Shown here: one piece after another, positions 1 through 8,714 of the stretch
Layout of the letters: every line of letters starts with the position of its first letter
Numbering within the stretch: position 1 is the stretch's first letter
Source: a virus
Lineage: Duplodnaviria > Caudoviricetes
DNA: 64,000 bases
Direction: 5' to 3' (one strand)
Virus record (IMG/VR): IMGVR_UViG_3300033145_002707
Location: 5,218-69,217 of that record
Translations under genes and position numbers: made by a program
The notes under the pieces: model-generated
Databases searched by the model: none
What the model was told of the DNA's origin: nothing
What the model saw: the letters and a program-made list of their open reading frames with translations, nothing else

Positions 1-143
1 AGAAAATCAGATTAGGGAAATTTGACATTCTGGCGTCAAAATATGGTGATGACAAAAAAGTCTCATATTCAATCAAAAGTACAGGCAGATCATTTACAGC
101 TGTTCAGCTGAAAAAATTGTTAGCATTTATAGACAAACTTTAG
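1..143 (+). CDS. Partial hypothetical protein (3' end only)
   Basis: Open frame from nt 3 (KIRLGKFDILASKY...LLAFIDKL*) ends at TAG 141-143, directly at repeat copy 1. Confidence 0.6.
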   Translation, partial: KIRLGKFDILASKYGDDKKVSYSIKSTGRSFTAVQLKKLLAFIDKL

Positions 144-205
144 CAAGGAGCCATTAAGTCCTGTGCGTTGAACGCAGCTATGAGGAAGTTACGTTCAGGT
201 TGGCT
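143..205 (+). ncRNA. Pistol-like ribozyme candidate, copy 1 (degenerate)
   Basis: GCAAGG-AGCCA-TTAAG-TCCTGT-GCGT-[P3 hairpin]-GGT-TGGCT; carries pseudoknot and P3 mismatches relative to copies 3 and 4. Confidence 0.6.
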
Positions 206-237
206 AAAATGTTAATCTTAAATGGAGGAAATGAAAA

Positions 238-741
238 ATGGAAACTAAAAAACAGGATTCAGCTTTTAAAAATCTTTACTTTGTGTCAAGTGCATTAGAC
301 CTTAAAGCAAACAGACTCTTCAAAAAGGTGTTGATGGTAAAGGATCAAATAGCAACTGGGACTGATGGATACAGATTGCACCAAGCCTCAGTACCTTTAG
401 CTGATGGCTTCTATTCTGTTCTGGCATGTACCAAACGCCATATTATCACAGAAAAGATAGAAGATGTTGATGTATATCCTAGTTTTGATGAGTGTATATG
501 TCTTGACTACAAATACCATATTAATACTGATTGTATTCAAAAAAAATTCGAAGATGATGGAGCATACGAAATAGCACTGATCAATAAGGTTGGAATTATC
601 GCATCAATTAAGCACATTCAATTCATTGTAGCATATGATAATTTTGATATCGCCTACATTAATGAAATATCACCTATATTCTTTTCAAACAAATCGTCTT
701 TAAAAGCATATGTTATGCCTATGCATCCGTTAACTGCTTAG
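238..741 (+). CDS. Hypothetical early protein
   Basis: 167-aa ORF with GGAGG RBS, flanked by repeat copies 1 and 2. Confidence 0.75.
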   Translation: METKKQDSAFKNLYFVSSALDLKANRLFKKVLMVKDQIATGTDGYRLHQASVPLADGFYSVLACTKRHIITEKIEDVDVYPSFDECICLDYKYHINTDCIQKKFEDDGAYEIALINKVGIIASIKHIQFIVAYDNFDIAYINEISPIFFSNKSSLKAYVMPMHPLTA

Positions 742-744
742 TTA

Positions 745-807
745 GCAGGGAGCCATTAAGCCCTGTGCGTTGAACGCAGTCATGAGGCAGCTGCGTTCAG
801 GTTGGCT
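745..807 (+). ncRNA. Pistol-like ribozyme candidate, copy 2
   Basis: GCAGGG-AGCCA-TTAAG-CCCTGT-GCGT-TGAACGCAGT..GCTGCGTTCA-GGT-TGGCT; predicted cut 801/802. Confidence 0.75.
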
Positions 808-1021
808 AAACTTTAAGATGGAGGAAATGAAATGGAATTATCGCAAGCTAAGATATTCCTGGTAAGACCATTGAGCCTTGTGGCAAGTGTAATTGCTTGT
901 TGGAGAGTTTTACGGTTATAGAGGTTAAAGAGAAAAAAGAATTAGTCTTGTGGTTCAATGTTGGCAAAGGCACGTTTGCAGAGAAAATGAAAATATGTTA
1001 ACCATTAAACGGAGGTGTATT

Positions 1022-1210
1022 ATGGAATTATCAGCAAAACTTAGAGCAGCACTTGCTCCAGCAAATGCAATGTTTACAGAAAGTGACAGAAGGTATTTTA
1101 ACGACCACAGATGGGAATATGCCAGTGAGTTGGCCAAGGAGATGAGATGGCCTGAATGTCAAAGGCTGGTAGCTAAAATTGACAAAGATTTTGGGAGATA
1201 TTCTTATTAG
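1022..1210 (+). CDS. Small hypothetical protein (MELSAKLRAAL...)
   Basis: GGAGGTG RBS before ATG 1022; stop TAG overlaps repeat copy 3. Confidence 0.7.
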   Translation: MELSAKLRAALAPANAMFTESDRRYFNDHRWEYASELAKEMRWPECQRLVAKIDKDFGRYSY

Positions 1211-1272
1211 CAGGGAGCCATTAAGCCCTGTGCGTTGAACGCAGCTATGAGGAAGTTGCGTTCAGGTTGGCT
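1210..1272 (+). ncRNA. Pistol-like ribozyme candidate, copy 3
   Basis: PK 1210-1215/1226-1231, P2 1216-1220/1268-1272, P3 1236-1246/1254-1264; conserved TTAAG, GCGT and GGT; predicted cut 1266/1267. Confidence 0.8.
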
Positions 1273-1297
1273 AATAACTTTTAAATGGAGGTGTATT

Positions 1298-1459
1298 ATG
1301 AATAATCAATGTCAAAATTGTATATGCTATTATACAAATTGGGATGAGGAAGTGGATGATACCATGGAGGAGCAAGCACCTGGAGAGGAATGCTCTTGTG
1401 GTATGAATCCAAACAGTCTTGAAAAGTGTGTTTGTTTCCAAGATGTAAGTGATCAATAA
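1298..1459 (+). CDS. Small Cys-rich hypothetical protein
   Basis: GGAGGTG RBS; MNNQCQNCICY...CSCG...CVCF. Confidence 0.65.
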   Translation: MNNQCQNCICYYTNWDEEVDDTMEEQAPGEECSCGMNPNSLEKCVCFQDVSDQ

Positions 1460-1481
1460 GTTTTTAAAACGGAGGTGTATT

Positions 1482-2993
1482 ATGGAAGGCACAAAAGATT
1501 TAATTCTTGCCCTTAGGGCAGGATACGCATTGTTTTATGCCCAAACCAATGAGATGGAGAGGGCAGTTGGCAGCATAGTTAAGGCTGTCAATGAATACGA
1601 AAGTGTTTCATCTGGCAATAAAGCCTATAATGCTTTGATTTGGGATTTAGAGTCTGACAAGGATCCAGATGTTGTAAGCAACATGTTAGATGGAGAAAGT
1701 CCTGGAACTGTTGTTGTAGCAAAGAATTTCAATTGGTTCTTAAAGGATGAATATGGCAATCTCAATAAGCAACTTGTGTCATATATCCAGAACCGTCTTG
1801 AGCTTTACACGACCCCAAAAGGCAGAAAAGCCTTGATAATTGTTGGGAGCGATGAGTTCGATGACGCTATTCCTCAAGTTTTATCAAAAGATTTTCTTCA
1901 GATAAACTTTGAATTGCCTGATGAAGACGAAATACGACAGATTTTTGAATCAATTGTCAATTCTGCTAAAGACAATCCAAACTTTAAGATGCCTGATGAC
2001 AAAGAAGTTGAGAGAATTATTCAGTCCTCTAAAGGCATGACCAGACGTGATGTGAAGAATGCTTATGCTTATTCAATCATCAAAGATGGTGGTGAGTTAA
2101 AGTCCAAGACAGTCGGTATTATACAGGCAAGTGATGTTGAAAAAACTCCAGGATTGAAGATAGGTGAATATCCAAAGGCCAGTCCGCTAATTGGATACAA
2201 TGAGGCTAAAGACTTTGTCCTTGATTTTATTGATGACCCTACTTCACTTGGTGTTATGCTTCTTGGTCCTGCTGGAACTGGTAAGACTTCTTTTGCCAGA
2301 TGGGTTGCAGCCAACTCTGGAAGGAAATGTATTGAGATGGAAATGGCTCAGATGATGGGTGAAGGTTTGGTTGGGCAGATGCAAAATGCTTTTAATAGAG
2401 CTATTCAAGTCATTAAGGCTAATGCTCCTTGCATACTCTTTATAGATGAGATTGAAAAGGGTTTGGCTGGAGCCAGTGGTGGTGGTGATAGTGATGGTGG
2501 AAGTATGAAACAATCTGCTGCTCAGTTCTTGAAATTCTTGTCTGATGACAGACCGGAAGGTGTTTATGTAATGGCTACGTGTAATGATATATCTCAGCTG
2601 GCACCTGAATGGGTTAGGGCTGAGAGATGGGATTGTGCTCCATTCTTTGTTGATTTTCCAAATGCTGCTGAACGAAAAGCAATATTCAAACATTACTGCG
2701 AGCACTATGAGCATAAGGCCAAAACAATTGGCAAATTTAGCACCGACAAAGATTGTGAAGGGTGGTCAGGTGCTGAGCTAAAGGCTGTATGTCGCATTGC
2801 TGCTACACTGAAAAGAAAAAATCCAGATGTTAAGCTCAAGGATGCAGCCAAGTTTATCAAGCCTATCAGCTTGACTATGGCGGAAAAGGTTACAGAGCTG
2901 AGAGGATGGGCAAAATCAAGAACCAACCCTGCTACTACTGATGTAAGCAAGGTTGCAAATGGCAAGGTGGAAGACAGAAAGCTTGAATTTTAG
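1482..2993 (+). CDS. Ycf46/SpoVK-like AAA+ ATPase
   Basis: Walker A GPAGTGKT, Walker B LFIDEIEK, MATCND, PEWVRAERWD; GGAGGTG RBS before ATG 1482. Confidence 0.9.
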   Translation: MEGTKDLILALRAGYALFYAQTNEMERAVGSIVKAVNEYESVSSGNKAYNALIWDLESDKDPDVVSNMLDGESPGTVVVAKNFNWFLKDEYGNLNKQLVSYIQNRLELYTTPKGRKALIIVGSDEFDDAIPQVLSKDFLQINFELPDEDEIRQIFESIVNSAKDNPNFKMPDDKEVERIIQSSKGMTRRDVKNAYAYSIIKDGGELKSKTVGIIQASDVEKTPGLKIGEYPKASPLIGYNEAKDFVLDFIDDPTSLGVMLLGPAGTGKTSFARWVAANSGRKCIEMEMAQMMGEGLVGQMQNAFNRAIQVIKANAPCILFIDEIEKGLAGASGGGDSDGGSMKQSAAQFLKFLSDDRPEGVYVMATCNDISQLAPEWVRAERWDCAPFFVDFPNAAERKAIFKHYCEHYEHKAKTIGKFSTDKDCEGWSGAELKAVCRIAATLKRKNPDVKLKDAAKFIKPISLTMAEKVTELRGWAKSRTNPATTDVSKVANGKVEDRKLEF

Positions 2994-3001
2994 GAGGGGA
3001 T

Positions 3002-3151
3002 ATGTCAATAAAATTTACAGTAATAATAAATGATGAGGAAATCATTGAAGACTATAAGGATACAGATGATGGATTCCTTATAATAGATTTTCTGGAAAAT
3101 CCAGATTTGTGGTTGACTTTGAATAATACAGAAATTAAATTTGAAAGATAG
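3002..3151 (+). CDS. Small acidic hypothetical protein (49 aa)
   Basis: AGGAGG RBS; MSIKFTVIINDEEIIED...KFER*; stop overlaps repeat copy 4. Confidence 0.6.
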   Translation: MSIKFTVIINDEEIIEDYKDTDDGFLIIDFLENPDLWLTLNNTEIKFER

Positions 3152-3213
3152 CAGGGAGCCATTAAGCCCTGTGCGTTGAACGCAGCTATGAGGAAGTTGC
3201 GTTCAGGTTGGCT
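3151..3213 (+). ncRNA. Pistol-like ribozyme candidate, copy 4
   Basis: Identical to copy 3 over 63 nt; predicted cut 3207/3208. Confidence 0.8.
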
Positions 3214-3249
3214 AAAAGAAAATATAAACCCAAATATAGGAGGTGTAAA

Positions 3250-3549
3250 ATGCCGTGTTGGCAAGTACAAAAATTGTCGGTCAAATTTCAAGCCAAGAAT
3301 ATAGAATTGCTTATAAATGCAATTGAATCTCTTTCCTGGAATTTTGAAAAAATTGGTGAGACCATAAAAATTAATTATGGAGATATAGTTCTTGATTTGG
3401 CAAAAGGTAAAGCTGAGTGCTATGACCAAAATGGGTTGAACAAATTGAAGGTGGCATACAGCACAAAGGCTATTGAAAAGGTAGCAGCCAAAAAAAACTG
3501 GCTGTTCAAGAAAGCAGCCAATAACAAAATGCAACTCAAAAGGTTTTAG
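3250..3549 (+). CDS. DUF1257 (Ycf35)-like protein
   Basis: About 100 aa, LLINAIESL...LNKLKVAYSTKAI pattern; lies downstream of a Ycf46-like ATPase. Confidence 0.55.
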   Translation: MPCWQVQKLSVKFQAKNIELLINAIESLSWNFEKIGETIKINYGDIVLDLAKGKAECYDQNGLNKLKVAYSTKAIEKVAAKKNWLFKKAANNKMQLKRF

Positions 3550-3562
3550 GAGGAAGTGAAAA

Positions 3563-4129
3563 ATGAGAAAATTATCCATCATAATTGCTGTATTTGTAAT
3601 GTTCATGTTATCAAATGTTTTTACTGTAGTTCATGCAGGGACAGAGTTGGAGAGAATAGACAAAGTGTGTCGTGAAAAATGGGAAATGTCAGGAGCTAAA
3701 ACACTGGCAAATGTCACATATACCACCAATGAGATAGGCTATACAAAAGCAAACAAATACCTGTATTATCACAATAAAGGCTTGAATGAGAATTATGATT
3801 TTGAAATTATTCAAAAATTAGGGAAGCATCTGGTATTTTACTGCTCAGGTGTAACAACTCATTATGGCAGGACAAAAACGACTGAATTCAATTCTAATTA
3901 TCGCCAGCTTGTTGCCATTGATGTTACAAGATCAACAGAGGAAGACAGGTTCTATTTAGACAAAGCACAGAATGGTTCTTCGCTTTTTTACCTTACTGGT
4001 GGAAAGCATTACAAATTGGTGAACTTGCTGAAGGTGGAAATTAATGGGTTTGACAGCAAGATTCCAGTTGTTGCTTGTGTTTCAAATGGTCGTGACAGGT
4101 CAATGTGGAAAATAAAATATAAAAAATAA
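3563..4129 (+). CDS. Secreted or membrane-anchored hypothetical protein
   Basis: N-terminal signal peptide MRKLSIIIAVFVMFMLSNVFTVVHA. Confidence 0.7.
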   Translation: MRKLSIIIAVFVMFMLSNVFTVVHAGTELERIDKVCREKWEMSGAKTLANVTYTTNEIGYTKANKYLYYHNKGLNENYDFEIIQKLGKHLVFYCSGVTTHYGRTKTTEFNSNYRQLVAIDVTRSTEEDRFYLDKAQNGSSLFYLTGGKHYKLVNLLKVEINGFDSKIPVVACVSNGRDRSMWKIKYKK

Positions 4130-4141
4130 GGAGGATTTGGA

Positions 4142-4324
4142 ATGTTGTTACAAGAAAAAATAAATTCAATCAAACGCACAAATGATATAAAGTCTTTTGG
4201 GTACAAGCATGAAGATTTGTTTATATTCACTGATCATGAACTTGAAGAACTTAACAAACACGGCTTAATTGGTGATTTAGACATTAGCTTGATAAAGATG
4301 AGGAGGGAATCATGTCGACAATAG
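4142..4324 (+). CDS. Hypothetical protein
   Basis: GGAGG RBS, 60 aa. Confidence 0.6.
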   Translation: MLLQEKINSIKRTNDIKSFGYKHEDLFIFTDHELEELNKHGLIGDLDISLIKMRRESCRQ

Positions 4325-4539
4325 ATATTGAAATCTTAGAAGATGGCACAATCAGTATCACGACAGGAGAAATCGCTGAGACTCAGCATCTTTCAGCAGA
4401 TGCTATGCTGACTGAGCTGGAAGACATGGTTGGTGAGATTATTTCTAAGAAAGAAAATCCAAACAGTCCTGGCAAACTTTTTTTCAAAGACAAGAGAGTA
4501 TTGAGAGGTGGCAAAATAGTAAAGGCAGGGAGCCATTAA
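4312..4539 (+). CDS. DUF2997-like protein
   Basis: IDIEILEDGTISITT pattern; the last codons KAGSH* lie inside repeat copy 5. Confidence 0.55.
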   Translation: MSTIDIEILEDGTISITTGEIAETQHLSADAMLTELEDMVGEIISKKENPNSPGKLFFKDKRVLRGGKIVKAGSH

Positions 4540-4587
4540 GCCCTGTGCGTTCAGAGATGAACTGAGGATTCATCTCTGAGGTTGGCT
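4525..4587 (+). ncRNA. Pistol-like ribozyme candidate, copy 5 (alternative P3)
   Basis: Same core, but P3 is TCAGAGATGAA/TTCATCTCTGA (perfect 11 bp); predicted cut 4581/4582. Confidence 0.8.
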
Positions 4588-4617
4588 GATGAATAATATA
4601 AACTTATAAATAGGAGG

Positions 4618-5520
4618 ATGAAGATGGCTAAAGTCAAAGAGATTCAAGAAGCAAATGTGTTTTCAGAAGGAATGTTGGTTGTAAGACGATTTCATACAGG
4701 CTGGTCTGCTGCTACTGGAGCAAGTGATTCAGAGATGGGCAATTTGCCTGTTGAGATTATCCGTGGAGTCAAAAGCCTTTTGACTGAAGATGGCAAGGAG
4801 CGATTGAGGAATTTGAACTCAATCATGAACGAGGCAAAAGGTTTTATTAGCAGGAACTCAATGCCCCATCCAATTCCAACCCTTGATTTTGTACCAAAGC
4901 ATAAGATTGAATTTGTTGACGAAGGTTTGAGGCAGAGGCAAATAAATGCTTCTGCTTGTTTTGAAGAGCTGGTTGAAAACTATGAATCAGCAAAACTGGA
5001 TTACAAAAAGAGGTATCCAGATCACTATCAGCCTGAAAAATATCCAACTGTATCAAGGCTGAGAGCTGGTTTTGTCTTTGAATGGTCTTTCAGGGTGTTT
5101 ACATCACCTTCAAAAGAAATGTCAGTGTTGCCTGCAAGCCTTTATAAGGAAGAGGTAGCAAAGTTCAAAAGCGAGGTTCAAGAGATGAAAGACATGGCTG
5201 TTGACGCCATAGGAAAAGAACTGCTCAAGAAGGTCAATTCTCTTAAAGAGCAGTGCTCGTCAGAAAATGTTGCTACGGCAACAGTCAACAGTGTTCATAA
5301 TTTTCTTGACAAGTTTGATGATTTGTGGGATGGGTTTGTAGCTCATAAAGAATTGAGGAAGATGATTCAAGAGTTGAAGAATTATATGGATGGAACTGAT
5401 GCTGAGATGTTAAGAGCTGATGATAGTTTCAGGAATATGGTTGAAAAGAAAATGACCAAGATTGCTGACCAGTTGACTGTTGATGATGGCATACTTGCTG
5501 AGCGGAGCCTTGATTTTTAA
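4618..5520 (+). CDS. DUF3150-like protein
   Basis: 300 aa with YQPEKYPTVSRLRAGFVFEW segment and helical C-terminus. Confidence 0.55.
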   Translation: MKMAKVKEIQEANVFSEGMLVVRRFHTGWSAATGASDSEMGNLPVEIIRGVKSLLTEDGKERLRNLNSIMNEAKGFISRNSMPHPIPTLDFVPKHKIEFVDEGLRQRQINASACFEELVENYESAKLDYKKRYPDHYQPEKYPTVSRLRAGFVFEWSFRVFTSPSKEMSVLPASLYKEEVAKFKSEVQEMKDMAVDAIGKELLKKVNSLKEQCSSENVATATVNSVHNFLDKFDDLWDGFVAHKELRKMIQELKNYMDGTDAEMLRADDSFRNMVEKKMTKIADQLTVDDGILAERSLDF

Positions 5521-5535
5521 GGCAAAGGAGGCAAA

Positions 5536-6129
5536 TTGAAAAAAATAAAACTCAATAGTGATGCCTCTGACGGGATGGAAGTTGATGATGTCAAAAGGCT
5601 CATAAAGTCAATGGCTTGGGTATGGAAAAGGAAATTGCCTATTGAGTCAGTCACGGACACAGACGATCTTGAGCAGGAAGGCTGGATTGTCTATGTGTCT
5701 TGCAGGCAAAAATATAGGCCAACAAGTGGTGTTAAATTTTCTACATTCTTATGGAGATGCTTGGCGAATAGGTATCAGAATGTAGTCAGATCAGAAAGGA
5801 GGTACAGAGTTAGAGTGTCAACATCTGAAGATGTTGGTCTGTTCAGATTGGATGGTCAAGCAAGCCAAGAAAGGATGACAATTATATCTGAAGCAATTGA
5901 AGTGATTAGGGAAGTTTGTCCTGAGTTAGCTGATATGATTTCGGATAGAGTGCCTGACGAGCTGTTGGCTATAGCGAGAAATAGGAAACGAAGGAATAGA
6001 ACAAAAAGAGGATTCAAATCAATAGGTGGTAATTTGACTTTTGACAAGTGGTTGCTGGAGAATTATTTTGGAGTTGAACTCGGTGAAAATTCAGCAATGA
6101 GGCGGTCGGTTTATGATATTATTGACTGA
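5536..6129 (+). CDS. Sigma-70-family RNA polymerase sigma factor-like protein
   Basis: Region-2 pattern DDLEQEGW...KYRP..GVKFSTFLWRCLANR. Confidence 0.7.
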   Translation: MKKIKLNSDASDGMEVDDVKRLIKSMAWVWKRKLPIESVTDTDDLEQEGWIVYVSCRQKYRPTSGVKFSTFLWRCLANRYQNVVRSERRYRVRVSTSEDVGLFRLDGQASQERMTIISEAIEVIREVCPELADMISDRVPDELLAIARNRKRRNRTKRGFKSIGGNLTFDKWLLENYFGVELGENSAMRRSVYDIID

Positions 6130-6171
6130 TTATTTTTAATTAAACCAAATGAATTCAAAAACAGAGGAGAT

Positions 6172-6918
6172 TTGAAAATGGTTATCAAAACTGATAGAAA
6201 ACAATTGGAGTTCTTTGCAAATGACTTGAGCATTGAGGTTGACCCAAAAGATAAGGATGAAAGTCTTTATGATGAAGTCATAAAAGCACTGGATGTTTTG
6301 ACAGATGATGAATGGGATGCTTTGAATGAAAAGACCCAGGAGTGGTCAAATGAACTTAACCAAGCCAGACTTGCTGCCAGGAAAGGGAGCAAAACTGAAA
6401 AACCTGAGAAGGAAGAGGAATCTGAAACTAAGTCTGAAAAGGCATCTAAGGAGGCACAAGAGGTTCCTGAGAAGGCCAAAAATAAGGATAAAGGTAAAGC
6501 CAATGGCAAAGAAAAATTTGCCAAAAAAGATGCTGCTAAGGAGCCAACCAAAAAAGAGTTGGATGCAGCAAAAGCCAAGGCAAAAGAAAAGGCTAAAACA
6601 GTCTTTTCAGAATCAAAAAAACAAACAACAAATGACAAGCCTTATAATGATGGCACAACAGCTTGGCATGTTTGGATGACTGTTGTTGATGCTGGCAAGA
6701 AAGGTATTACAGCTGAAGCTGCTCTACCTGAATTTGAAAAGAGGATTAAGGCTGCTGGACTTGAAACCAGCAATGCAAAGAGCAGGGTGAATACGATTTT
6801 GCGTCAGTGTGTTGACCCAAAAGGCCTGGTAGATGTGAAAGATGGTGTTTACACATCAACAAAAAAGAGTGCTGAAGCCATCAAGCAGGCTTCTAAAACC
6901 AAGAAGGAAAAGGAATAG
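6172..6918 (+). CDS. Lys/Glu-rich hypothetical protein, possibly DNA-binding
   Basis: Low-complexity K/E/A linker between two small folded regions. Confidence 0.7.
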   Translation: MKMVIKTDRKQLEFFANDLSIEVDPKDKDESLYDEVIKALDVLTDDEWDALNEKTQEWSNELNQARLAARKGSKTEKPEKEEESETKSEKASKEAQEVPEKAKNKDKGKANGKEKFAKKDAAKEPTKKELDAAKAKAKEKAKTVFSESKKQTTNDKPYNDGTTAWHVWMTVVDAGKKGITAEAALPEFEKRIKAAGLETSNAKSRVNTILRQCVDPKGLVDVKDGVYTSTKKSAEAIKQASKTKKEKE

Positions 6919-6923
6919 ATGTT

Positions 6924-6965
6924 TGCCCAGTCACTACTGATAACCAGTGGTGACTGGGCTTTTTT
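6924..6965 (+). terminator. Rho-independent terminator
   Basis: GCCCAGTCACTACTG-ATAAC-CAGTGGTGACTGGGC followed by TTTTTT. Confidence 0.85.
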
Positions 6966-6990
6966 CGTGACCTTTTTTCAGGAGCAAATT

Positions 6991-7932
6991 ATGAAAATTG
7001 TCATCATAGGTGCTGGTATATCTGGTGCTATAGCAGCAGGAGCATTGTCAAGTTATAACCCCAAAATCTTTGATGCAGCCAAGAAAAAAGTCCAAAATCA
7101 TAGAGCTGTTATGAGGCTAAGAGATAGTTCAGTTTGTATGTATCTTGGAGTTGGATACAGAAAAGTCAAAGTCCACAAGGCTATTTCTTTTGAAGGCAAG
7201 CTAAAATCAGCACCAAATATAAAAATGAATAATCTTTATTCTATGAAGACAAATGGCACTCTTAGTGATAGGTCTATAAGTAACCTTGGTTCTGCTGACA
7301 GGTTTATCATGACTCAACCTTATTCCATAAAAGATGTAGCTTATGATAAATGGCTTGTTGGTGTATCAAAAAATGCATTGTCATTTGCAGATGGCACAAC
7401 AGAAACATTCGATGCCTGTATAAGCACAATCCCTATGCCCATTATGCTTATTGCTGCTGGCATTGGAGATGCATCAGACTTGTTTGAGTATAAAAATATT
7501 TTCGTGTATAGAGGAAAATTGAATATCAAATCAAGCATAAATCAAACACTATACTTCCCGTCAGATGCATTCCATATATACAGAGCAACTATCCAAAGCC
7601 AAGACATAATCATAGAATCTGTATCAGAGATAAATCCAGAAGAGATAGCTGGAGCCATGAAATGCTTTGGAATCAAGCCACCTCATTACGACATCAGTGT
7701 TGCCAAAGTGTACAAACAAGAGATGGGCAAAATGCTGCCTATCAACGAGCACAGAAGAAAATGGTCAATAATTACCCTTACAGATACGTTCAATATATAT
7801 TCTTTTGGAAGGTTTGCCATATGGAAACCAATAAGGACAGACCATCTCGTGAGTGATATTGAGAACATAAAGGCAATGATAACAGATGACAGCAAATATT
7901 TTGCGCACAAAATTGCTATAAATAAGCCATAA
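6991..7932 (+). CDS. FAD-dependent oxidoreductase (Glf/UDP-galactopyranose mutase-like fold)
   Basis: IIGAGISG dinucleotide motif, DACISTIPMP, SFGRFAIWK; GGAG RBS before ATG 6991. Confidence 0.75.
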   Translation: MKIVIIGAGISGAIAAGALSSYNPKIFDAAKKKVQNHRAVMRLRDSSVCMYLGVGYRKVKVHKAISFEGKLKSAPNIKMNNLYSMKTNGTLSDRSISNLGSADRFIMTQPYSIKDVAYDKWLVGVSKNALSFADGTTETFDACISTIPMPIMLIAAGIGDASDLFEYKNIFVYRGKLNIKSSINQTLYFPSDAFHIYRATIQSQDIIIESVSEINPEEIAGAMKCFGIKPPHYDISVAKVYKQEMGKMLPINEHRRKWSIITLTDTFNIYSFGRFAIWKPIRTDHLVSDIENIKAMITDDSKYFAHKIAINKP

Positions 7933-7940
7933 AGGAGAAA

Positions 7941-8714
7941 ATGATGGATGTAAAATTAATTGAATACACCAAAAATGCTGAACGGCTGCTGGTATTCAGC
8001 AAAAGAACCAGGCATATGAAAAGTGTTGATTCATATGACGAAGTGCTTGAGATGGATGATGAGGAAATTCAAGGCAATTTGAATTATGTTTTTAATACAA
8101 TACAATCAAGTTGGGAATTTGTTGACTATGTTTTTCTAATTTGTGATGTTACAAGAGCATTCACACACCAGCTTGTTAGGCACAGGGTGGGCACAGCATT
8201 TGCTCAGCAAGCCCAAAGGGTGGCAACTCAGGAAGGATTTGGCTATCTTGCAACTGGAACTTGTATTGAGAATGAAACGTATCACAATACAATGAAAGAT
8301 ATACAAAATGGCTATGACAAGTTGATAAATGAGGATGAATGTCGGCCTCAAGATGCTCGTGGAGTCTTGCCTACCAATGTATATACCAATATTCTTTTCA
8401 AAGTCAATCTCAGAGCTTTGAGTGATATGCTTTGTACAAGGCTATGTGTCAGGGCTCAAGGCGAATTTCAGCTGGTTGCTCGTGAAATGCAGAAGCTGGT
8501 TGTCAAGGTTCATCCATTTACTGCTCCAATTCTTGGTCCGAATTGTATGAGATATGGTGTTTGTAAATTCCCGAGGTTTGCAGATTGCCCAATCAAGAAA
8601 AAATTTCCTTTTCTCAATGGTATCAATGACCGTATGAGGGATGAAATAAAAGACTTTTGGACTAAAACAGTAGGTTTTGATCCTCAGCCAACAGCCCATT
8701 CATGGGAAAAATAA
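7941..8714 (+). CDS. thyX: Flavin-dependent thymidylate synthase ThyX-like protein (divergent motif)
   Basis: VTRAFTHQLVRHR...FAQQAQR, QDARGVLP, R.C.RAQGE. Confidence 0.85.
   Translation: MMDVKLIEYTKNAERLLVFSKRTRHMKSVDSYDEVLEMDDEEIQGNLNYVFNTIQSSWEFVDYVFLICDVTRAFTHQLVRHRVGTAFAQQAQRVATQEGFGYLATGTCIENETYHNTMKDIQNGYDKLINEDECRPQDARGVLPTNVYTNILFKVNLRALSDMLCTRLCVRAQGEFQLVAREMQKLVVKVHPFTAPILGPNCMRYGVCKFPRFADCPIKKKFPFLNGINDRMRDEIKDFWTKTVGFDPQPTAHSWEK

Follow-up and report, generated by a model that had tools for sequence, protein, structure and literature searches.

The closest described system to the elements reported here is the pistol class of self-cleaving ribozymes (RF02679; Weinberg et al. 2015; Harris et al. 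2015, PMC4604425), for which the env25 and A. putredinis crystal structures are available. In the published structures P1, the pseudoknot (PK) and P3 form one coaxial stack, with P2 lying beside the pseudoknot, an A-minor contact to P1, and P1 stacked on the end of the pseudoknot opposite P3 (PMC11300833; PMC6154101). Because of this position we infer that P1 is peripheral to the active site. The consensus drawn for pistols from 500 sequences treats P1 as fixed; when P1 was disrupted in a canonical L. sphaericus pistol, activity fell substantially, and P1 is called very important there (PMC4604425). The pseudoknot hammerhead has the same helix and pseudoknot connectivity as the pistol (PMC11300833), showing that the pistol scaffold tolerates rewiring; it is built around its own core (CUGAUGA/GAAA), in which the general acid is the G8 2'-OH, whereas the elements described here carry the pistol core. 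The minimal HDV-like 'theta' ribozymes of gut phages (PMC10879173) are likewise a stripped-down natural subtype found in many uncultured phages at defined RNA-processing sites, although they belong to another ribozyme class and sit next to tRNAs. In the early operon of phage T7, several intergenic structures serve as RNase III sites through which one transcript yields defined mRNAs with 3' hairpins; cutting there depends on the host RNase III, and the resulting ends are 5'-phosphate and 3'-OH. The role of self-cleaving ribozymes in phages remains an open question according to a review (PMC6765202).

We analysed a 64,000-nucleotide stretch of viral DNA (the window). Reading of the sequence and a repeat finder identified a 63-base element in five direct copies, all on the + strand, each with the layout GCAGGG-AGCCA-UUAAG-CCCUGU-GCGU-[P3]-GGU-UGGCU, that is PK5'-P2a-UUAAG-PK3'-GCGU-P3-GGU-P2b. 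Mean column identity over a gapless 63-nt alignment of the five copies was 93%. A 15-mer of the core has five exact occurrences and, when up to three mismatches are allowed, gives nine matches; shuffled sequences gave a mean of 1.8 and at most five, and none of 100 reached nine. The anatomy of the elements is thus established, and their features are as follows; the scissile bonds are predictions.

143..205, + strand: copy 1, predicted scissile bond 199/200, possibly impaired
206..240, + strand: short A/U-rich leader with GGAGG and start codon, after copy 1
745..807, + strand: copy 2, predicted scissile bond 801/802
808-834, + strand: short A/U-rich leader with GGAGG and start codon, after copy 2
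1210..1272, + strand: copy 3, predicted cut 1266/1267
1210-1215, 1216-1220 and 1226-1231, + strand: PK5', P2a and PK3' of copy 3
1236-1264 and 1268-1272, + strand: P3 and P2b of copy 3
1221-1225, 1232-1235 and 1265-1267, + strand: unpaired UUAAG, GCGU and GGU of copy 3
1273-1300, + strand: short A/U-rich leader with GGAGG and start codon, after copy 3
3151..3213, + strand: copy 4, identical in sequence to copy 3, predicted scissile bond 3207/3208
3214-3252, + strand: short A/U-rich leader with GGAGG and start codon, after copy 4
4525..4587, + strand: copy 5, predicted scissile bond 4581/4582
4588-4620, + strand: short A/U-rich leader with GGAGG and start codon, after copy 5

The copies are not equally intact. 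Alignment of copy 1 showed three weakening substitutions, namely G4>A (an A.C mismatch) and C17>U (a G.U pair) in the pseudoknot and a C.A mismatch in P3, and its minimum free energy (MFE) fold places the pseudoknot in a shifted register; it still scored 90.3 bits in the R1 family model, and it may be impaired. In copy 2 the MFE fold formed both the PK hairpin and P3, and copy 3 had an MFE z of -2.5. The P3 of copy 5 has 11 bp, all paired, in a sequence entirely unlike that of the other copies. A sixth copy, truncated after GCGU and dead, lies about 850 bp upstream of the window (G000:4362-4387).

To the Rfam Pistol model (RF02679), all five copies aligned over model positions 23-68 of 68 only, skipping the part of the model that holds the P1 hairpin. 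UUAAG, GCGU and GGU-UG were intact in every copy and all conserved core nucleotides were placed, with E-values of 6.6e-5 to 3.6e-3 per genome. Scores were 21.4 bits for copy 1, 27.1 for copy 2, 27.9 for copy 3 and 28.9 for copy 5, below the gathering threshold of 34.5 bits; a scan of the whole window at gathering thresholds returned no match, and the elements appeared only in the permissive E-value mode. As a control, canonical pistols from viral contigs scored 40-65 bits over positions 1-68, and short-P3 relatives of our elements in contigs L168 and L169 reached 35.2-35.9 bits as local 23-68 matches. A search of window positions 1-5000 at E up to 10 gave no match to the hammerhead families, including the pseudoknot type with its CUGAUGA/GAAA core. 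The Rfam alignments show that the elements are homologous to the pistol core. The elements share with pistols the core order (P2a, UUARG, a 6-nt PK 3' strand, GCGU, a variable P3, GGU with the G/U site, P2b), a 6-bp pseudoknot partner strand and an association with phage genes. They meet the membership features of a 6-bp pseudoknot, a P2 closing the core, a variable P3 hairpin, the conserved core nucleotides and a fixed-length P3-P2 junction holding the G/U site; a P1 hairpin with linker and a score at or above the gathering threshold are not met.

The absence of P1 is equally clear. The spacing between PK5' and P2a is 0 nt (1 nt in four relatives), and neither a P1 hairpin nor an A-rich linker was found in the window copies or their relatives, in which the sequence upstream of G1 is unconserved. 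Since GCAGGG and AGCCA adjoin directly, there is no room for a P1 3' strand or linker; a P1 formed with upstream sequence was rejected for the same lack of space and conservation. In the pistol, the PK 5' strand comes from the loop of the P1 hairpin; here it is a free stretch at the 5' end with only 0-1 nt before P2a, which makes the pseudoknot helix a simple hairpin with P2a in its loop. Further differences are a P2 of 5 bp, a P3 that is often long (11 bp), and a PK and P2 that are almost invariant rather than freely covarying.

An earlier sequence-only reading of this DNA had claimed five 63-nt copies at 143, 745, 1210, 3151 and 4525 in the order of parts given above, and the sequence, repeat finder and alignment all bear this out. 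Its mapping of UUAAG, GCGU, GGU and both helices onto the pistol, with G33 at 1225, G40 at 1232 and the cut at 1266/1267 in copy 3, agrees with the Rfam alignment. The claims that P1 and its linker are absent, with the PK strand running straight into P2, and that a standard covariance model may miss the elements also held, as did the statement that no description was known: no published P1-less pistol was found in the searchable literature.

A P1-less model, which the same reading had proposed, was then built and searched for relatives together with a pattern scan. This recovered 92 full copies, of which 64 are distinct, from 60 sources that are mostly sediment metagenome contigs, at a density of up to five copies within 1.75 kb; members were also present in IMG/VR contigs L131, L133, L150 and L151. 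An exact 21-mer of the core had no IMG/VR match outside this record, and a loose 14-base pattern gave chance matches only. A blastn search of window positions 1-8000 against cultured-phage records found no match, hence no cultured relative is identified. Scanning of genome contigs gave nine loci, only one of which was a true copy (L233); this 4.9-kb contig was assigned to a Bathyarchaeia MAG, is probably mis-binned phage DNA and gave no host assignment. P1-less forms with other pseudoknots were sought in two relaxed viral scans, which returned only L243 (8391-8446), a separate P1-less lineage with the pseudoknot GCCCGG/CCGGGC, the rest being canonical pistols or chance matches. In the last model search L243 narrowly missed the E cut-off, and its pseudoknot was read directly, outside the formal pair count.

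Across the family alignment, 97.2% of cells are paired; shuffling gives 78% and sliding the partners 28-49%, bearing in mind that this alignment was fitted to the model structure. Changes on both sides of a pair were observed at all 11 pairs of P3, three of five in P2 and one of six in the pseudoknot. GCAGGG/CCCUGU pairing is possible in 98.2% of cells; PK pair 1 varies between G.U, A-U and G-C, and four of the six PK pairs essentially never vary in the main family, so that PK covariation there is thin. In L243, compensatory changes occur at two further PK pairs. The earlier reading would have been refuted by a lack of covariation in PK and P2 among homologues; P2 passes this test, and the pseudoknot is thinly supported within the family and compensated in L243. 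The natural minimal pistol architecture it inferred is therefore supported, and self-cleavage remains an inference.

Selection on the RNA structure is shown by these data together with the conservation of the core. Thirty-four core positions are nearly invariant while the proteins flanking family copies are only 22-58% identical, indicating purifying selection on the core. The search pattern itself fixes part of this invariance (at GGG/YCC, CA/UG, UUARG, GCGU and GGUUG), and 12 of the invariant positions are not constrained by it. The variable sites cluster at G6, A7-U63 and an optional 1-nt insert, a pattern that fits a strained hinge at the former P1 site. The RNA is read from the + strand, as G.U pairs are present in both PK and P3 and every copy lies on the coding strand. 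A minus-strand RNA also folds but was rejected, because the G.U pairs, the orientation of the genes and the Rfam match all point to the + strand.

The repeats could alternatively be mainly a DNA module, either a cassette recombination joint or a small mobile repeat, with an incidental RNA fold. The identical core between genomes with highly diverged proteins, the differing neighbouring genes between contigs, and the truncated upstream copy, which is joined directly to a ribosome-binding site (RBS) cassette, are in favour of this. Nevertheless, P3 covaries at every pair across 54 distinct sequences and the G.U pairs work on one strand only, so selection acts on the RNA fold and not on DNA identity. 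Every copy is also on the coding strand, and any recombination at the joints could merely follow from the presence of ribozyme repeats. We consider this explanation very unlikely.

A pistol-derived structured RNA that has lost self-cleavage, acting as a 3' stabiliser, a protein site or a host nuclease site, is harder to dismiss. The damage caused by P1 loss in the canonical L. sphaericus pistol (PMC4604425) speaks against a working ribozyme, no cleavage evidence exists, and self-cleavage is thus inferred. The core is moreover conserved far beyond the upkeep of its helices, and GAGG or GGAG occurs in 35 of 38 long P3 loops, suggesting recognition by a trans-acting factor; this core invariance and the GAGGA loop exceed the needs of a plain ribozyme and may hint at an added or different role. 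Against a non-cleaving RNA, the catalytic nucleotides of the class (UUARG, GCGU and the GGU junction, fixed in length and with U-G after it) are kept in 63-64 of the 64 distinct copies, a precise set that binding or stability alone would not require. Decayed copies do exist and are visibly different: L213:1911-1971 has a broken GCGU, and the copy upstream of the window is cut short. Loss of cleavage is therefore an unlikely explanation.

The placement of the elements among genes is conserved: each copy is just after, or overlaps, a stop codon and lies upstream of the next start codon. A Shine-Dalgarno (SD) motif and start codon follow within 80 nt in 90 of the 92 copies, and their median distance to the predicted cut is 32 nt. 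In 42 of the 92, the G of a TAG stop is G1, and others hold the stop in UUAAG. Within the window, the TAG stop of the upstream ORF shares its G with base 1 of copy 1, as do those of ORF 1022-1210 (copy 3) and ORF 3002-3151 (copy 4); copy 2 is located after the stop of ORF 238-741, and ORF 4312-4539 terminates at the UAA within UUAAG of copy 5 (4537-4539). Copies in relatives are in synteny with ORF 238, 1022 and 4618 homologues; no homologue of G000 ORF 4407-5360 was found beside the ORF 238 homologues in other contigs. That these genes form an 'early' operon, as had been claimed, remains an inference from gene content and position only.

This placement raises the possibility of a conditional ribozyme, whose catalytic fold is gated by the terminating ribosome or by a factor binding the GAGGA loop. 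In most copies the stop codon overlaps the 5' strand or the UUAAG loop (bases 1 or 13-15), so a terminating ribosome must unfold PK and P2, and the SD-like motif in the long P3 loops is conserved with no start codon after it. Cleavage would then report translation of the upstream gene, which refines our main reading and does not exclude it. On the other hand, GAGGA is missing from the 16 variants with a short P3, whose loops are GNRA- or UUCG-like, yet these variants keep the same placement, and genome compaction suffices to explain overlapping stops. Gating is therefore also unlikely.

We favour the reading that these elements are natural P1-less pistol-type self-cleaving ribozymes that segment a phage transcript. 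This is likely, with catalysis, cut site, product fate and early timing all inferred; because about 90 relatives share the position between stop codon and ribosome site, they are probably a working natural variant. During transcription, bases 1-6 (GCAGGG) would pair with 17-22 (CCCUGU), so that the pseudoknot helix arises as an ordinary local hairpin. P3 would fold next, and the UGGCU 3' strand would pair with AGCCA in the hairpin loop (P2), completing an active site of the usual pistol kind. Judging by homology, the general base acting on the G57 2'-OH would be G23 (env25 G40) and the general acid a hydrated Mg2+ at G16 (G33), the chain being cut between G57 and U58. The predicted 5' product is the preceding gene together with a structured tail of 57 nt and a terminal 2',3'-cyclic phosphate; the 3' product would open with UUGGCU bearing a 5'-OH and continue through the A/U-rich leader and GGAGG into the following gene. 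In this way, the polycistronic transcript made from the left (+ strand) arm of the phage, which has a contractile tail, would become single- or few-gene mRNAs with defined ends. Functionally this would resemble T7, with intergenic sites splitting a polycistronic message. In contrast to T7, the RNA would cut itself without a host enzyme, and the predicted ends are 5'-OH and 2',3'-cyclic phosphate.

A bolder reading, no more than a possibility, is that stop codon, ribozyme, leader and RBS form a 'punctuation cassette' after most early-region genes of a group of sediment phages. The 34-nt core, with the GAGGA P3 loop included, would be frozen by a second job such as factor recognition, coupling of cleavage to termination, or service as a cassette-exchange joint.

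If our favoured reading is true, a widespread P1-less form would redefine the minimal pistol, P1 would serve only to present the pseudoknot strand, and a core of about 50-63 nt would be usable as a tool. Such elements are probably under-counted, since standard Rfam scans miss the copies in the window. Nearly every small, putatively early gene in the family is bracketed by a ribozyme-like element whose cleavage is inferred, and the fixed position of these elements relative to stop codon and RBS makes the idea of operon segmentation directly testable.

Window positions 1-5000 were inspected by direct reading and with a repeat finder, which recovered one direct-repeat family of five copies. Trimmed to 63 nt, these aligned without gaps at 93% mean identity, each with the layout GCAGGG-AGCCA-UUAAG-CCCUGU-GCGU-[29-nt hairpin]-GGU-UGGCU. 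The five elements and motif order claimed by the sequence-only reading therefore held in every detail. The transcript is the + strand, as fixed by the G.U pairs and gene orientation. By window start position, the copies are:

143, + strand: copy 1, with three changes, all of which weaken it: G4>A, C17>U and a C.A hairpin mismatch
745, + strand: copy 2, with few differences, at paired hairpin positions
1210, + strand: copy 3, completely identical to copy 4
3151, + strand: copy 4, completely identical to copy 3
4525, + strand: copy 5, hairpin wholly different in sequence, 11-bp stem and 7-nt loop retained

Exact matches to the core 15-mer numbered five, and nine matches were found with up to three mismatches (shuffle mean 1.8). 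The MFE folds of copies 2, 3 and 5 contained a pseudoknot (PK) hairpin and P3, leaving UGGCU unpaired and able to pair into the hairpin loop.

The sequence-only reading had predicted that a standard covariance model may miss these elements. This held for the window copies, as an Rfam scan at gathering thresholds returned no match in the whole 64-kb window. In a permissive search, Pistol (RF02679) was the top match for all five copies; every alignment was to the + strand and spanned model positions 23-68 of 68, with scores of 21.4-28.9 bits against a cut-off of 34.5. The segments A-NNCA, UUAAG, PK 3' strand, GCGU, P3, GGU and UGNN fall exactly on the RF02679 consensus; nothing in the copies corresponds to positions 1-22, which cover the P1 hairpin and linker. 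Canonical pistols from viral contigs, used as a control, scored 40-65 bits over positions 1-68. They carry a P1 of 4-5 bp with a 6-nt loop complementary to the PK strand, and 11-19 nt lie between that loop and P2. In the window elements, zero bases separate the complementary strand GCAGGG from P2a (the first P2 strand), and conservation ends exactly at the first G of GCAGGG. P1 is therefore missing rather than diverged. Element G16, G23 and G57/U58 are taken to be env25 G33, G40 and G53/U54 by homology, and on this basis the copy 3 positions proposed earlier (1225 for G33, 1232 for G40, cut at 1266/1267) also held. Separately, a pistol at L229:6553-6614 retains a 4-bp P1 (GCAA/UUGC) but has a linker to P2 of only about 2 nt; its layout could be transitional between the canonical and P1-less forms.

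Scanning IMG/VR by sequence pattern revealed four further viral contigs with the P1-less layout (L131, L133, L150, L151), and the same pattern occurred in 72 metagenome contigs, most from one sediment or soil sample set and several multi-copy. The P1-less covariance model suggested by the sequence-only reading was built from the five window copies and retrieved 92 full-length copies (64 distinct, 60 sources), including some missed by the pattern. The densest array holds five copies within 1.75 kb (L169). Among 185,579 prokaryote genomes searched, there was only one true copy; it lies in an archaeal MAG, on a small contig that is likely a mis-binned phage contig. One decaying family member (L213:1911-1971) retains an intact, fully paired P3 with a broken core (GCGU to AUGU, a deletion in P2a, UUAAA), illustrating an inactive relic. 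Dense arrays of canonical ribozymes were also seen in two viral contigs: in L157:2101-3316 one pistol and two type-P5 twisters pass the cut-off and a type-P1 twister falls short of it, and L139:6405-8062 has three pistols, all above cut-off.

Pair counts were taken from an alignment of relatives fitted to the model structure. Standard pairs filled 97.2% of cells, versus 78% when shuffled and 28-49% with partners slid by 1-3 columns. Both sides changed at 11/11 P3 pairs, across 54 distinct P3 sequences, and three of the five P2 pairs showed compensatory changes (A-U to U-A, C-G to G-C and, adjacent to the core, A-U to G-C). The PK (bases 1-6 with 17-22) is nearly invariant in the main family: pair 1 is G.U, A-U or G-C; pair 6 is G-C, G.U or A-U, with five mismatches; the remaining four show essentially no change. 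The search pattern itself accounts for some of this invariance, but twelve positions that it left unconstrained were equally invariant. A separate P1-less lineage (L243:8391-8446; GCCCGG-GGCCA-UUAGG-CCGGGC-GCGU-P3-GGU-UGGC), in which the PK is compensated at two further pairs, supports the pseudoknot independently. Core conservation far exceeds what helix maintenance needs. Of 38 long P3 stems, 35 have a GAGG/GGAG loop motif (mostly GAGGA) that no start codon follows; among 16 short ones only 2 have it. This SD-like motif (for example window 1247-1253 and 4562-4568) is present although the long P3 stems are entirely different from one another; the short P3 variants instead end in loops of the GNRA- or UUCG-like kind.

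Every copy is flanked by a stop codon on one side and the following ribosome-binding site on the other. Base 1 doubles as the G of a TAG stop in 42/92 copies; in others, copy 5 among them, the ORF terminates at the UAA of UUAAG. An SD and start codon follow in 90/92 copies, the median distance from the predicted cut being 32 nt. Metagenome homologues of window ORFs 238, 1022 and 4618 share only 22-58% protein identity and keep the ribozyme on the same side, which indicates long retention under selection. The genes across a ribozyme vary from contig to contig. Together with the extra core conservation and the GAGGA-type loops of long P3 stems, this leaves room for three other readings, each possible: that the ribozyme is gated, that a trans factor acts with the element, or that the repeats serve as recombination joints.

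The window spans bases 5218-69217 of a 69-kb IMG/VR virus record that encodes a contractile-tailed phage. At 41-63 kb the minus strand carries its sheath, baseplate, tape-measure and major head genes. Preceding the + strand arm, and immediately before the first gene with a ribozyme, is a gene-poor interval of about 1.1 kb (3100-4197 in whole-record numbering), with no + strand ORF of ≥45 aa carrying the preceding run of genes across it. This interval contains only short ORFs (47-65 aa, mostly minus strand) and may hold early promoters or an origin. Along the arm lie small ORFs that matched no family, genes for an AAA ATPase and ThyX, a sigma-factor-like gene and others; from this content and position, the label 'early operon' is a reasonable inference, not shown. 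About 850 bp before the window start lies a truncated sixth copy (record 4362-4387, within 4362-4405). Preceded by a TAG stop, it retains only the first 26 nt (GCAGGG to GCGU), which are fused directly to the repeated RBS cassette TTTTAAACGGAGGTGTATTATG; having lost P3, the GGU cleavage junction and P2b, it cannot cleave. The cassette of about 26 nt (repeat family D2), TAAAYGGAGGTGTATTATG, recurs at window 999-1024, 1275-1300 and 1459-1484 and at record 4388-4409, and precedes several small genes, whether or not a ribozyme comes first. Downstream of copy 2, a short ORF (window 832-921) starts MELS like ORF 1022-1210 and then diverges, perhaps as a duplicated, frameshifted remnant of its neighbour. 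The start of ORF 6919-7932 holds a strong hairpin resembling an intrinsic terminator (window 6925-6959, +; 15 bp, nine G-C pairs, then a T run), which might end the ribozyme-bearing transcription unit.

Can the fold do without P1? In published structures P1, the PK helix and P3 form a single coaxial stack, with P2 parallel to and beside the PK and an A-minor contact to P1 (PMC11300833; PMC6154101). We infer that P1 sits at the PK end away from P3 and that the linker returns along P1 to P2; deleting both should therefore place the 3' end of the PK strand beside the 5' end of P2. Variation concentrates at this joint: G6 is not G in 6/64 sequences, A7-U63 is mismatched or swapped in several, and four relatives carry one extra nt. 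This variability, the 1-nt insert and the full 5-bp P2 are consistent with the inferred geometry. Against it, P1 disruption in a canonical pistol caused substantial activity loss (Harris et al., PMC4604425); however, that experiment keeps a long unpaired tether and cannot be equated with the compact natural form.

No pistol without P1 was described in the full-text literature searched, and within that scope the earlier statement that no published description was known held. P1 is part of the consensus published from 500 examples. Short-P3 relatives score 35.2-35.9 bits against RF02679 as partial matches, so some could already sit unnoticed in Pistol match lists. The P1-less variant is real and under selection; with no cleavage data, catalysis is inferred only.

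In the reading we prefer, that of a self-cleaving element, each copy would cut at G57/U58 during transcription, giving an upstream mRNA whose 3' end is a structured tail of 57 nt bearing a cyclic phosphate, and a downstream mRNA starting with a 5'-OH on a short A/U-rich leader. Processing of polycistronic transcripts by bacterial and phage ribozymes has been suggested, not established (PMC6765202). The T7 early region has RNase III sites, and the proposed element would be their host-independent counterpart.
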